Both the position numbers and the translations under genes were made by a program. From IMG/VR virus record IMGVR_UViG_3300032116_000170: a DNA stretch of 20,000 nt. One strand, written 5' to 3'. The first letter of the stretch is position 1; the number at the start of each line of letters is the position of its first letter. The notes beneath the pieces were generated by a model. It had not been told where the DNA came from, made no database searches, and saw only the letters and a list, made by a program, of their open reading frames with translations. This document shows, piece by piece, positions 1 to 13,744 of the stretch. This DNA is from an uncultured virus (IMG/VR IMGVR_UViG_3300032116_000170) (taxonomy: Duplodnaviria > Heunggongvirae > Uroviricota > Caudoviricetes).

Positions 1-1058
1 GTATCGGAATAGACTGCTCCACACGCAATTTGCAGCAGCTTGTTGAGCTTGGCCGCAGCGTTGACCGCAGTGACTTCTTCCCCGGCAGCTTGCATGGCCA
101 TGACCTTGCGCAGCTTCTCGTAGTACTTGATCTGCTGCGTGGTCAGGGGCACCTCACGCTCGGTGTACAGCAGGTCGGGCAGGTCAAGGCATTGGTCCTT
201 GGTAAACCGGATGGCGGGCTGCAGCAGCGAGCTGACCACTTGCTGGGCTTCCTTCTTCGGGGTCCATTTGAACTGCGTGATCTTGGTCATCACCTGATCC
301 CGGTACAGCGTGAAGCTGCGTGGTGCGGCTGATGGGTTGAGCAGTTTGGCCAGACCGTAGGCATCCAGAGGGGATTGCGAAGCGGGGGTGCCTGTCAGCA
401 TCCACAGCCACGTGCTGGGCTTGATGATCTTGTTGAGCGACTTCCACCGTGCGGTGGATGCGGTCTTGTATGCGTTGCATTCGTCGATGACGATCAGGTC
501 AAAGTTGGCAGCGGCAATCTGCTCTTCCACAATGTTCACGCCGTCGAAGTTGATGATCACGAACTCAGCATCTGACTCGATGACCTTGATGCGCTTTTCC
601 TTGCTGCCGTAGGCCACGCCCACCTTGCGGTGCATCGCGGCTTTGAAGATGTCAGCTTGCCATGCGGACTGCATGATGGACAGGGGGCAGATGACCAGCA
701 CCCGTTTGATTTGCTTGATGTCCATCAAGTAATCTGCGGCCCATGTGACAGACATGGTCTTGCCAGTGCCGGGATCGTTGAAGCAAAACGCCCTGCGGTG
801 CAGGGTCAAGAAGGCAGAGGTCTGCTTCTGATGCACGAACGGGTCGTATATACCGGGCCAGCCGTATTTGGCAACGATGGGGGATGGTACGTTTTTGATT
901 TTCAGGTTCTTCAAAACCTGCGCTTCTTCCAGCCCCCAGTGAACCATCACTGTACTGAGCGGGCCGTCTTCAATCAATGCGCTTTTGGGGATAACGCTCA
1001 AGACCTTGTGCGGGTTCTTGAGGCGTAGCTTCAGGGCCTTGCCTTGAATGATTTCCAT
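1..1058 (-). CDS. SNF2-family (SF2) helicase, 3' end truncated by window edge
   Basis: Missing from the ORF track; translated by hand from ATG at 1058 (RBS GGAGAAC 1061-1067): MEIIQGKALKLRLKNPHKV... Motif I FNDPGTGKT, Ia VICPLSI, II IVIDECN, III MLTGTP. Frame is open to the window edge. Confidence 0.93.
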   Translation of the reverse strand, partial: MEIIQGKALKLRLKNPHKVLSVIPKSALIEDGPLSTVMVHWGLEEAQVLKNLKIKNVPSPIVAKYGWPGIYDPFVHQKQTSAFLTLHRRAFCFNDPGTGKTMSVTWAADYLMDIKQIKRVLVICPLSIMQSAWQADIFKAAMHRKVGVAYGSKEKRIKVIESDAEFVIINFDGVNIVEEQIAAANFDLIVIDECNAYKTASTARWKSLNKIIKPSTWLWMLTGTPASQSPLDAYGLAKLLNPSAAPRSFTLYRDQVMTKITQFKWTPKKEAQQVVSSLLQPAIRFTKDQCLDLPDLLYTEREVPLTTQQIKYYEKLRKVMAMQAAGEEVTAVNAAAKLNKLLQIACGAVYSD

Positions 1059-1079
1059 GTGTTCTCCAATGCAGAATAT

Positions 1080-1239
1080 CCCGAAAGTGGAATCCACGTT
1101 CGGGTCTGGGGCTGGCACCTTACGGGTGCCATTCGGTTGAATCAACCCCCACGAAAGGACTGGGGTCTTCAACTGGTATGGTTTAAGGGTTCAAATCTTG
1201 AAACACCCCCGCAGCCCCACTCATACCTGACGAGCTGCG
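1080..1239 (-). ncRNA. Candidate structured RNA or cis-regulatory element (5 helices plus pseudoknot) upstream of the SNF2 gene
   Basis: Nearly the whole 190-nt intergenic gap folds into stems. G-U pairs extend the stems on the minus strand only. Pairings are listed in the findings. Confidence 0.6.
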
Positions 1240-1249
1240 TATTCCAAGG

Positions 1250-1528
1250 CTACTTGGGTTTGTTCTTCTTTACGGTGTGGTCACTGTTGCGACTGAACGA
1301 CCGGTTTGCTGAAGCTGTCTTGAGCTGCAGGTTGTTTTTACTGGTGCTGCCACCTTTAGATAGTGGGCGCTTATGGTCAATATCCTTGCCCTTGCGGTCA
1401 ATACCTTCTCGGTCATACAGGTCACGTGCGTTTTCTCTTTTGCGTCTTGCATCTGCTTCACCCTCTCCTCGCGCCAGCTGCTGCTGGTATTCTTTTTTGT
1501 ATGGTCTTGGTTTGTTCACGTATGGCAT
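1250..1528 (-). CDS. Small HNH endonuclease
   Basis: MPYVNKPRPY...DIDHKRPLSKGGSTSKNNLQLKTASANRS: HNH motif DH..PLS.GG....NL......N. RBS GAAGGAAG upstream of ATG 1528. Confidence 0.8.
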   Translation of the reverse strand: MPYVNKPRPYKKEYQQQLARGEGEADARRKRENARDLYDREGIDRKGKDIDHKRPLSKGGSTSKNNLQLKTASANRSFSRNSDHTVKKNKPK

Positions 1529-4646: not shown

Positions 4647-4930
4647 AGCAGTAGCCTTCCTTCCATTTCTTCCAAGTTGTCTTCACGGGCCACGAATGTG
4701 AACCCGCCCGAGTCTTTGATCAATTGCAGCTCACGCTCTTGCAGGGTAGTGGTCTTGCCCTTGCCAGCCTTGCATTCGATGGCGATGAACCGCCCGTTGT
4801 AGCAACCGATGATGTCGGGAATACCTGAGCGCCCAAGCCCCATGCCCGGAGGCATGAAGTGGTAGATGCCCAAGCGATCCAGCACCTTGCGAACCGCAGC
4901 TTTTACCGCCGCTTCTGGAGTTCTTGCCAT
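4634..4930 (-). CDS. VRR-NUC domain nuclease (putative Holliday junction resolvase)
   Basis: TPEAAVK...GRSGIPDIIGCYNGRFIAIECKAGKGKTTTLQ: PD...E.K plus Q motif typical of stand-alone phage VRR-NUC. Confidence 0.9.
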   Translation of the reverse strand: MARTPEAAVKAAVRKVLDRLGIYHFMPPGMGLGRSGIPDIIGCYNGRFIAIECKAGKGKTTTLQERELQLIKDSGGFTFVAREDNLEEMEGRLLLWTT

Positions 4931-5379
4931 ACTTGTCCTTTAATAAATGTGTTGTGTTGTTTCCACCGCCAGTGCGCCAGCGCTTTGCTTATGCCCACAT
5001 GCCGAGCACACTCCACAAGCGTGCCGGTAAACGTGCCGTCGGTGTAGAGCCGGGTGGTGCTCTTGTTTTTTTGCTGTTCGCTGCGCGTACTCCAGCAACA
5101 GTTGCCGGGGCTATAGCCCTTGTTGTTATTGCGTCGTTCAAGGGAGTGTTGGGGGCTTGGGCGCGGCCCAATATCGGCAATAAACGCGGCATAGTTGTGC
5201 CATCGTTTACAGACTTTAATACCCCGCGCGCCGTAGTAGTGGTACGCTTGGTTGCTCGGGTTGTTACACCGCGCCATCATTGACCGCCATACATAGTGTT
5301 CAGGGCGTTCTTTGCCCCCAAGATAGCCGCCGTGTTTAGTTCTTGCGGCAGCCCATGCAGCTTTTTGTTCAGGCGACAT
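4903..5379 (-). CDS. HNH homing-endonuclease-like protein
   Basis: KHG...YVWRSMMARC...YGARGIKVCKRW...FIADIGPRPSPQHSLERRNNNKGYSPGNCCWST..EQ..N, a common free-standing phage HNH family. RBS GGAGAAG. Confidence 0.85.
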   Translation of the reverse strand: MSPEQKAAWAAARTKHGGYLGGKERPEHYVWRSMMARCNNPSNQAYHYYGARGIKVCKRWHNYAAFIADIGPRPSPQHSLERRNNNKGYSPGNCCWSTRSEQQKNKSTTRLYTDGTFTGTLVECARHVGISKALAHWRWKQHNTFIKGQVWQELQKRR

Positions 5380-12115: not shown

Positions 12116-13171
12116 TCACGCAAACATGTATTGGTTGTCGATGGCGAACGTGGTGAACTTCTCGTTCTCCAGCGTGAACTGCTTGGCAGGCTTCTTGATG
12201 ATGGACGTGCAAAACAGTGCCTGCATCTCACGGGGCATGCGTGCCATGTAATCCATCCACGGGTCAAGGGTCTGCTCATCCACCCAGTTGAGCGCTTGGT
12301 AGGCCAGCATCAGCTTGCCCGCCACTTCCTTGGGCATGCGTGCGTTCTCCGGGTCGTTGATGATCTCGGTGCGCTTGGGCAGGCTGTCACCCATGGCGAT
12401 CCACGCTTGCAGGTCCAAAGCAGCAGGTGCACCCACCGTACCTACCAGCGCAGACTCCAGCGCGTTCGGGGTATACAGGTGGCGCTTGTTCACGATCTTG
12501 CTGGCTTGTGCCAGTGACCGGTGTGTCACGAACGCAGTGCGCTGTGCCCGTGGATGGAAGATGAACGGGTTGTCGTTGGGCTCTTTGTAGTCCTCGAACG
12601 AGTGCAGCACATCGGGGCGCTCACCCACCCACATGATGATCTCGGGGGCGATGTCATTGAACCGTGCCCAGTTGTCCACCCACTCTTGCGCCGTGGGTTT
12701 CTTCATCTGCACGAATGACATGCGGTTGCGGTGGTGTGCTTGGAACGTATCGCCCACAGACTCAGCACCAAGGTTGGTTGTTGCGAACACGATGGAGTCA
12801 GGGTGCAGGCGCTGGTTACCCAAGCGGCGCTCGACCAGCAGGGGCAGGGACGCATCCTTGACGGGCTTGGTGGCCTTGCCCATTTCATCCAGCATGAGGA
12901 CGACCGGCGTGTTGTCGTGCATACCCAGCGAAGCGTTCGGATAGAACTCGGAGGACTTGGTCGCGTGGTCCACAGCAGGCACACGGAAGTCACCCTCGTG
13001 CATGACGGTCATGTCAAGGTACATCTTGCGGTGGTTGGGGAACCGCTCACTGACATCATCAAGAATGGCGCTCTTCCCGCTGCCAATATCTCCTTCTACA
13101 ACACAGGTCACGTCTGCGCCGATGGCGCAGATAAGATCGACCACTTCATTACGTGTGATTGCTGATTTCAT
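12116..13171 (-). CDS. MoxR-type AAA+ ATPase
   Basis: Walker A GDIGSGKS, Walker B VLMLDEMGK, sensor ATTN, Arg finger RNR; adjacent to the vWA gene. Confidence 0.9.
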   Translation of the reverse strand: MKSAITRNEVVDLICAIGADVTCVVEGDIGSGKSAILDDVSERFPNHRKMYLDMTVMHEGDFRVPAVDHATKSSEFYPNASLGMHDNTPVVLMLDEMGKATKPVKDASLPLLVERRLGNQRLHPDSIVFATTNLGAESVGDTFQAHHRNRMSFVQMKKPTAQEWVDNWARFNDIAPEIIMWVGERPDVLHSFEDYKEPNDNPFIFHPRAQRTAFVTHRSLAQASKIVNKRHLYTPNALESALVGTVGAPAALDLQAWIAMGDSLPKRTEIINDPENARMPKEVAGKLMLAYQALNWVDEQTLDPWMDYMARMPREMQALFCTSIIKKPAKQFTLENEKFTTFAIDNQYMFA

Positions 13172-13677
13172 GATGTTCTTTCGTTTAAAAAGGTTGATTT
13201 ATCGATCCGCAGAAATACTGCATCTTTGGCACTGAGGCCGCGCTTTAAGCGGTAATGAACCGTCTTTGGCCCAATACCTGCTTCCTTTGCCCATACGGTC
13301 AAGGGCTTGCTCTTTCCGTCTATTTCTAGCCACCGGGTGTTGCGCTTGTTGGTAGCCTGTTCTGCCAAGGTTGCCCATCGGCAGTTGTTGGGACCATATC
13401 CTTGGGCCCCATCTATGCGGTCAATTGATGCACCAGCAAATGGGGGTGGCCCCATATCCAAAATGAACCATTCAAATCCGCTCAAACCGTCTGCTCCATA
13501 TGCCCATCTATCGCATATGGTCACACCCTTCGCCCCGTATTTGGCGTAGTCTTTGTGTGAGGGCTGTAAGCAACGGGCCTTCATGTTCTGCCATCGCAGA
13601 TAAATGGTTGACGGCTTCCCGTTTACATACTGGCCGTGCTTGAAAGACGGGTTTGTGGTTCCTTTTAGACTGGGCAT
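13168..13677 (-). CDS. HNH homing-endonuclease-like protein
   Basis: KHG...YLRWQNMKARC...YGAKGVTICDRW...FILDMG...SIDRIDGAQGYGPNNCRWAT..EQATNKR plus a C-terminal HTH-like region. AAGGAG RBS. Confidence 0.85.
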   Translation of the reverse strand: MPSLKGTTNPSFKHGQYVNGKPSTIYLRWQNMKARCLQPSHKDYAKYGAKGVTICDRWAYGADGLSGFEWFILDMGPPPFAGASIDRIDGAQGYGPNNCRWATLAEQATNKRNTRWLEIDGKSKPLTVWAKEAGIGPKTVHYRLKRGLSAKDAVFLRIDKSTFLNERTS

Positions 13678-13744
13678 CACTGACTCCTTTTGCTAAGTAC
13701 ATGACCATGTTTTACCACAGTATACGCTCTTGGGTCAGCCCCAT

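Follow-up and report, generated by a model that had tools for sequence, protein, structure and literature searches.

Between the genes for a small HNH protein and an SNF2 helicase in an uncultured virus of the Caudoviricetes lies a gap that was suggested to encode a structured RNA, and the question raised by this locus is what the RNA is and which gene it acts on. The window, i.e., the whole 20,000-nt stretch of DNA that was analysed, belongs to a phage replication module whose genes for PolA, a PD-(D/E)XK exonuclease, the small HNH protein, and the SNF2 helicase are on the minus strand. The HNH-like protein (1250..1525, minus strand) is 91 aa long when read from the ATG at 1525 and matches Pfam HNH (E 3.4e-4) and phrog_4590. 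The SNF2-type helicase (3..1058, minus strand; Pfam SNF2-rel_dom, E 9.9e-22) runs off the window; in the nearest virus record, G001, it is 522 aa long and is followed by genes for a protein of 129 aa, an Xis-like HTH protein, a protein of 297 aa, and a DUF927 primase-helicase. The 297-aa protein, which we take to be an SSB from its position, has no Pfam match and matches phrog_27714, where no function is assigned. The gap had been put at 190 nt; measured between the stop codon of HNH (1250) and the start codon of SNF2 (ATG at 1058), it is 191 nt long, with the SNF2 ribosome-binding site (RBS) at 1063..1069 on the minus strand. Stop-codon readthrough or frameshifting into SNF2 is ruled out, since the gap lengths fail to keep the reading frame. 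Two more free-standing HNH homing-type endonuclease genes (phrog_3377) are found in the window at 4903-5379 and 13168-13680.

The gap encodes a real, uncatalogued family of pseudoknotted RNA, located at 1072-1239 on the minus strand. All helices of the original prediction are found on this strand where they had been placed. P1 (1210..1239) starts 10 nt after the HNH stop; its 8 bp (1239-1232 with 1217-1210) close a conserved 14-nt loop, RUHA-GGURYG-A-GU-G. This loop contains the 5' strand of the pseudoknot (1219..1227), consisting of six nucleotides (1227-1222), a bulged A (1221), and two further nucleotides (1220-1219). It pairs with 1182-1175, which together with an invariant AAC make up the segment 1175..1183. 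The pseudoknot helix is thus refined to 6 bp, a bulged A, and 2 bp, the two extra pairs being invariant. P2 (1187..1209) is a variable hairpin within loop 3 of the pseudoknot; it is present in the window as proposed, but only 58% paired in the alignment. P3 (1136..1173) is composed of P3a (1173-1168/1141-1136), where the first pair is refined to G-C, a purine bulge on the 3' side, P3b (1167-1162/1149-1144), and a 12-nt loop. P4 (1113..1131) is a CGUAA-type hairpin, while other copies have a GGAAAGAC-type hairpin, with a U-tract behind it in most of the bacterial ones. P5 (1072..1108) is the RBS-proximal hairpin and has a 4-bp extension. P4 and P5 behave as interchangeable modules, found also without the pseudoknot. 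P5 is kept before SNF2 without the pseudoknot in L141, L145, L151-L153, and L157, and it may be the true translational element of SNF2.

Homologues were collected by protein searches, which gave 159 partly redundant loci, 73 of them with a relaxed core pattern, and by a pattern scan that added at least 120 more; 105 phage loci are distinct among the matches listed, and for 40 loci the flanks are only 300 nt. Two chance rows (L277 and L075) were removed before counting. The 123 distinct copies among the matches listed define the core P1-[RUHA GGURYG A GU G]-P1'-P2-[AAC CRYAYC A]-P3. The search pattern fixed several of the core letters, but 32 distinct copies recruited through proteins are equally conserved. 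In 66 dereplicated homologues 85.4% of the cells are paired, compared to 67.1% after shuffling and 32-45% when the structure is slid along the alignment, and the covariation score is 0.533 against 0.214 for shuffled alignments (0/500). Pairing reaches 99.8% in the pseudoknot helix and 95.8% in P3, and RNAalifold recovers both P3 and the 6+2 pseudoknot helix unprompted. Pair 4 of the pseudoknot is G-C in 90 and A-U in 33 of the 123 listed copies with no mismatch, although mismatches were tolerated by the search pattern; on a neighbour-joining tree of SNF2 from 58 loci, 10 changes are needed for the pair as a whole and 10 for each of its two sides (5' and 3') taken alone. Pair 3 changes from U-A to C-G in L005 and in the bacterial L450 and L455. 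P1, the pseudoknot, and P3 covary strongly, and the comparative evidence is decisive for the predicted fold.

The RNA is assigned to the minus strand because of the G-U and U-G wobbles at pseudoknot pair 2 (62 of the 123 listed copies) and pair 5 (73 of 123), in agreement with the proposal that the wobble pairs work on that strand only. Folding of the single sequence is modestly better than that of shuffled controls (z -2.13), but the plus strand gives z -2.72, and the energy does not pick a strand. P4 and P5 together give z -4.30, while the pseudoknot domain gives z -1.14 in a model that does not include pseudoknots.

The original prediction did not recognise a named family, and none was recovered from Rfam 15. 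The scan of the window gave no match at the gathering threshold and one chance match on the other strand (E 0.82). In 20 homologous loci the only match was a sub-threshold one to sbrA (E 0.072) in the variable 3' part, and for seven bacterial islands and two phage stretches no family was assigned to the element. The element is likewise without a blastn match among isolated phages. The motif is undescribed in the literature searched, although it may be listed in the Weinberg 2017 supplement, in PMC4509812, or among the alignments of Fremin 2023. DNAVirus_1549 (Fremin et al. 2023, PMC10690425) is described as a 117-nt motif from 74 freshwater viral sequences, located at most 25 bp upstream of SNF2-type genes. 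Compared by description and length only, it could be the 3' part (P3-P5) of the element. The supplement rows for DNAVirus_1549 carry no function, target, or host copies, and the motif strings of the element are absent from supplement files 3-6 of that paper. An uncatalogued and widespread RNA family is hereby added to those of freshwater phages.

The RNA is found in more than 100 distinct phage loci. Among the matches listed, an HNH match lies upstream in 95 of the 105 phage loci and an SNF2 match downstream in 94, and the spacing from the pseudoknot to SNF2 is usually about 110 nt. In 94 of the 95 listed loci with an HNH match the RNA starts 7-71 nt past the stop codon. HNH is a frequent, not an obligate neighbour; it is missing beside the bacterial copies and in L204, L296, L361, and L381. 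The RNA is located between PolA and the exonuclease in L296 and after an SSB in L361 and L381, while in the complete phage G007 it precedes small genes and PolA, at a distance of 4.7 kb upstream from SNF2. The same phage contains a type II hammerhead-like descriptor match (L463, 1881-1938), where Rfam finds none. The RNA is optional, since the covariance model R1 matches nothing in 34 HNH-SNF2 loci, picked as pattern-free, or in three distant cultured phages with a related SNF2. A type III antitoxin pseudoknot RNA was rejected as an identity for the element; tandem repeats are absent (one match per genome or record, with two separate copies in G069 and G119), and there is no constant toxin neighbour.

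The interior of P3 could be called in 102 of the 105 rows. CCUUUC is present in 48 of these 102 interiors compared to 3.9 expected, in the orientation of the 16S tail taken from a genome. An identity of at least 7 nt with the 16S tail is found in 16 of 18 non-phage copies (1.6 expected) and in 22 of 84 phage copies (3.2 expected). By sequence, the P3 loop is a mimic of the anti-Shine-Dalgarno tail of 16S rRNA. In the window, the loop segment 1151..1160 (minus strand) is a 10-bp complement to the RBS of the 129-aa gene that follows SNF2 (L464, 2217-2226, with the ATG at 2230); this target lies outside the window and is third by duplex energy among the coding-strand sites.

Longer flanks were obtained for the candidate loci, 265 of 279 having both genes; these reduce to 79 representatives, or 78 without the chance row L075. 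For the 78 phages the duplex energy between a loop and its own target RBS is -12.17 kcal/mol, while permuted combinations give -10.88 ± 0.30 (z -4.35, 0/2000). The same comparison is null for the RBSs of SNF2 (z +1.9, n=73), the putative SSB (+0.9, n=68), HNH (+0.1, n=69), the exonuclease (+0.5, n=64), and the polymerase (0.0, n=22). With one phage per protein cluster the median z is -2.7 at 70% identity (26 clusters; p<0.05 in 87% of the draws) and -2.45 at 60% (12 clusters), while the signal is non-significant at 50%, where three clusters are left. Cofolding with the whole of P3 gives z -2.6 (p 0.005), with medians of -1.45 and -1.96 after clustering. A control using P4/P5 is null and one using P2 is weakly positive in the full set (z -1.9, p 0.04).

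Strong outlier pairs are found in only 8 of the 78 phages (2.7 expected), and the mean rank fraction is 0.40. Many loops match at a generic Shine-Dalgarno level only, and those of L139, L140, and L142 hardly match. Among close relatives the loop and the RBS change together (32 non-independent rows), with L018, L005, and L313 differing again. In the group of L007, L014, L091, and L110 both depart from the Shine-Dalgarno consensus and can form 8-11 bp, and more distant phages have duplexes of 16 bp (L523), 13 bp (L708), and 11 bp (L711). The complementarity of the loop to the translation start of the 129-aa gene is thus statistically shown and gene-specific at the level of predicted pairing, and the co-variation of two sites 1.7 kb apart provides a specific and testable target, which is unusual for motifs of this kind. 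The loop was also considered as a partner of the SNF2 RBS, which it fits no better than it fits the SNF2 RBSs of other phages (z +1.9). A role as Shine-Dalgarno sequence of an antisense small ORF, resembling a type I toxin, was rejected as well; a start codon is present in 36 of 75 cases, the spacing is scattered, and no peptide is conserved.

The family matches of the 129-aa protein are all weak. It matches DUF7307 (E 3.5e-4), a Mu Gam/Sipho_Gp157-like family (E 0.02; E 1.7e-4 for the G007 orthologue), and phrog_13900, which is labelled minor head protein. No sequence relative was found in PDB, and the Atlas clusters contain only hypothetical or DUF7307 proteins. From the biology of Gam and Gp157, an anti-nuclease role can be presumed. 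The gene heads a series encoding the Xis-like HTH protein, the putative SSB, and the DUF927 primase-helicase. A strong sigma-70-like promoter, TTTACA-17-TATGAT, is located at the SNF2 stop (L464, 2177-2205) and would give a leader of about 20 nt. Promoter-like sites are found ahead of the target in 44 of 79 phages. The gene and its promoter are also present in phages that lack the RNA, the promoter in 33 of 53 distinct rows, although a few of these rows do carry the RNA.

Since the loop matches the RBS of another gene downstream, the RNA probably silences that gene and not the helicase. Our preferred reading, to which we assign a probability of roughly 45%, is that it is an antisense RNA of the C4/CI kind which owes its stability to the pseudoknot and prevents translation of the first gene in the putative-SSB/primase operon. 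It would then be a mobile regulatory RNA of about 110-170 nt in freshwater phages, acting as an antisense sRNA. The RNA would be transcribed inside the PolA-exonuclease-HNH-SNF2 message, and it may survive or be cut out as a stable species with the pseudoknot as a 5' cap or a protective or protein-binding scaffold and P4 as the 3' boundary. Acting in trans, the P3 loop would base-pair with the leader of the downstream transcript, which is short and unstructured, and hide the Shine-Dalgarno sequence and start codon there, so that the replication/anti-nuclease module is tuned or delayed. No sigma-70 promoter for the RNA itself was found in the window; TAnnnT hexamers ending 5-9 nt before P1 are present in 20 of 84 copies, but they are confounded with the HNH stop. 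Four sequencing runs were compared as contigs only. In two lake or aquatic RNA libraries, contigs X1 (1017-1231, no differences) and X5 (1150-1325, three differences) cover the element, X2 being off it; at a depth of 3-4 they link HNH to P3 and the 3' side of the pseudoknot to SNF2, which indicates presence in RNA libraries only, with DNA carry-over possible. Against the antisense reading stand the small number of strong outlier pairs, the loss of the signal with three clusters, the weakly positive P2 control, and the third rank of the target site in the window. The near-invariant sequence of the pseudoknot is likewise not explained by pairing, and there are many HNH-SNF2 phages in which the target gene and its promoter occur without the RNA.

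The closest parallels are found in the antisense RNAs of other phages. The CI RNA of P4 is described as being processed from a leader and as silencing replication genes by an antisense mechanism (PMC4825925). Like CI and the C4 RNA of P1 and P7 (RF01695; isrK is RF01394), the window RNA is a phage RNA within a longer transcript that is thought to act in trans on a replication transcript (PMC4825925, PMC5499578), and it is present both in phages and in host islands (PMC4825925, PMC5499578; table in PMC4603805). A loop complementary to the phage's own replication-related transcript is found statistically, and strongly in a minority of loci. However, the window RNA has no sequence-structure match to RF01695 or RF01394, it has a pseudoknot core, and it is predicted to act on an RBS 1.7 kb away, in front of a gene with a promoter of its own, and not on flanking seqA/seqC sites.

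The invariant pseudoknot would also suit a role in cleavage or processing. The pseudoknot domain would then cut or cap the polycistronic message, either as a new self-cleaving ribozyme or as a nuclease-blocking or processing element. We regard this as rather unlikely; it is compatible with the antisense role, in that such an element could release the RNA. The core nucleotides are near-invariant, paired ones included, and the element lies close behind a stop codon and changes its position in the operon, while L151 and L153 carry a different compact pseudoknot in the same slot. Pistol ribozymes also have a P1-loop pseudoknot. The hammerhead, twister, pistol, and HDV-like ribozymes and the RAGATH motifs are similarly patchy, mobile, intergenic, on the sense strand, and near phage genes; a hammerhead is described 13 nt ahead of a phage helicase (PMC3088659), and bacterial ribozymes are described near phage genes (PMC6765202). 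The window RNA matches none of their cores or Rfam models. No ribozyme family is found in the window even at E<=10, nor in 20 homologous loci, and 139 kb of islands contain none at the gathering threshold and none by the hammerhead descriptor. The descriptor finds no CUGANGA/GAAA/UH core with three stems on either strand of the window. The HDV layout, a nested double pseudoknot with P3/L3, P1.1, and an invariant catalytic C in J4/2, is not conserved: an equivalent of P1.1/L3 is lacking, the base after P3 varies, and the GA behind it is present in 72 of 102 copies. Twister, pistol, hatchet, and twister-sister give no Rfam model match. The RNA-library contigs, which together span 1048-1294 at a depth of 3-4 and with possible DNA carry-over, also speak against this reading. 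The original prediction left the choice between a cis-regulatory RNA and a small ncRNA; the latter fits best, while a cis-regulator of SNF2 is weakened by the SNF2 RBS control, the varied operon sites, and the convergent genes beside bacterial copies. A cis-acting role as a leader or operator through which a phage replication protein controls translation of the following gene (in most cases SNF2), in the manner of T4 gene 32 autoregulation, is improbable because HNH-SNF2 phages are often without the RNA, its sites vary, and the host copies mostly lack a gene in cis. The SNF2 gene downstream in 94 of the 105 listed phage loci, the P5 end 5-12 nt from the RBS, and loops that pair by 7-8 bp with the RBS of the next gene in L361 and L381 speak for it, as does the gp32 pseudoknot, an operator in a phage mRNA near replication genes (PMC10690425). 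But the loop has no specificity for the SNF2 RBS (24 of 44 better than shuffled), the next gene may be an inserted ORF, an exonuclease, an HTH gene, or a small gene with no fixed position, a same-strand ORF lies within 60 nt in 1 of 19 bacterial copies, and P5, which is nearest to the RBS, is separable from the pseudoknot. The window RNA is also much larger than the gene 32 operator, with hairpins within and after the knot, is not attached to one downstream gene, and looks terminated and alone in host chromosomes.

The excess of CCUUUC and of 16S-tail identity in the P3 interiors could alternatively reflect a generic mimic of the 16S 3' end, either a toxic sRNA acting on many Shine-Dalgarno sequences or a decoy that draws off proteins or nucleases with a preference for the anti-Shine-Dalgarno. 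Like the window RNA, the betaproteobacterial toxic small RNAs are small and terminated and have a pyrimidine-rich anti-Shine-Dalgarno segment, and they act by an anti-Shine-Dalgarno mechanism. The occurrence of such toxic RNAs in Betaproteobacteria (RF02278) is described in PMC4603805. The window RNA differs in being pseudoknotted, mainly phage-borne, and co-varying with one RBS, and it has no match to RF02278 or any other Rfam family. Given that one phage group drops the 16S-like sequence in step with the target RBS and that the excess pairing is gene-specific, we find little reason to expect such a mimic. A riboswitch aptamer, in which an H-type pseudoknot binds a small molecule and P3-P5 form the expression platform, is very unlikely. 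The conserved major-groove-type core with a bulged A resembles ligand-binding H-type folds, and a subfamily (27 of the 105 listed copies) has a partial alternative pairing between the P1 loop and a UCAU segment; there is no association with metabolic genes, most host copies lack a gene to regulate, and no Rfam riboswitch matches. Finally, the HNH gene upstream in 95 of the 105 listed phage loci might suggest a guide or cofactor RNA of the HNH protein, but this can be practically dismissed: HNH abuts SNF2 without the RNA in many phages, bacterial and several phage copies have no HNH neighbour, and a variable guide segment is absent.

Copies are also found in bacterial genomes. A genome scan gave 39 matches, of which eight are bacterial copies (four titled Polynucleobacter and four 'beta proteobacterium'), five are phage-like contigs in MAGs, and 26 were judged to be chance matches from a poor P1, the lack of phage context, and a CM score <=26 bits where scored. 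In the genus of G002, the Polynucleobacter genome of L303, at least 14 of 151 genomes have the RNA by the model and at least 16 of 241 by the pattern; in a sample of the family it is at least two of 150, both from the Polynucleobacter genus. These counts are floors because few candidates are scored. Of seven 20-kb regions around such copies, the genes were listed for five, and all five are variable islands that encode WYL regulators, VWA proteins, and restriction-modification and toxin-antitoxin systems. A palindrome, GCTCA-N5-TGAGC, occurs 44 times in the seven islands (L456-L462), compared to about four expected by uniform-base arithmetic; it is mostly intergenic and includes sites 55-80 nt before WYL-type genes. 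WYL regulators are described as binding palindromes and responding to ssDNA (PMC11662680), and we therefore infer that GCTCA-N5-TGAGC is a candidate operator of a WYL regulon in the islands of this genus.

The bacterial copies look like standalone terminated RNAs, judged from their surroundings. By mechanical ORF calls, a same-strand gene precedes the RNA in 18 of 21 copies, and the next ORF is convergent in 15 of the 19 with flanking DNA, with a same-strand ORF within 60 nt in only one of the 19; the positions in L450 and L455 are approximate. A U-tract follows the GGAAAGAC-type P4 in 14 of 21 copies, and the WYL-type palindrome lies upstream in eight of 21. According to the antisense reading these copies would be the same RNA expressed alone, possibly under WYL control. 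No target for the P3 loop is shared by the seven islands; in L461, an anecdotal case, the match covers 15 of 16 positions from the Shine-Dalgarno sequence to the AUG of a gene for a rhodanese-domain protein at a distance of 6 kb. It is conceivable, if unlikely, that a new class of pseudoknot-capped antisense RNA co-evolves with the RBS of the Gam/Gp157-like phage gene and that Polynucleobacter has captured it into WYL-controlled defence islands, where it would be induced by infection or DNA damage and silence the anti-nuclease/replication operon of the incoming phage, as an immunity consisting of RNA only and taken from the regulator of the phage itself. Through its standalone copies in WYL/defence islands the RNA connects the control of phage genes with host immunity, and these copies could reveal an RNA-only mechanism of defence or superinfection exclusion. 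Other RNAs are found in these islands as well. SAM-I/IV riboswitch-like RNAs score above the gathering threshold in WYL/restriction islands (L456 14543-14644, L459 422-520, and L460 459-556), the L456 copy having no same-strand gene after it. Two islands (L456 1572-1670 and L460 18280-18378) are inserted next to dnaX and the gene for the SRP RNA, which is a likely site of integration.

Some phage copies depart from the common architecture. The intergenic regions of L005 (2770-3190) and L120 (1960-2500) are enlarged to 418 and 560 nt, respectively, and the extra sequence in L005 forms more hairpins between the pseudoknot domain and P5. The different pseudoknot of L151 (about 2330-2370) and L153 (about 2330-2365) is a compact H-type in the same slot after the HNH stop, with a 3-bp stem and a knot of 6-7 bp; after it come a P3-like stem, whose loop in L153 is anti-Shine-Dalgarno-like, then a GGAAAGAC hairpin, and finally P5. 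The UCAU segment, located between P2 and the pseudoknot strand, is seen in L166, L170, L198, and most bacterial copies, and the 6 bp that it can alternatively form with the P1 loop, in those 27 listed copies, are a possible folding intermediate or switch.
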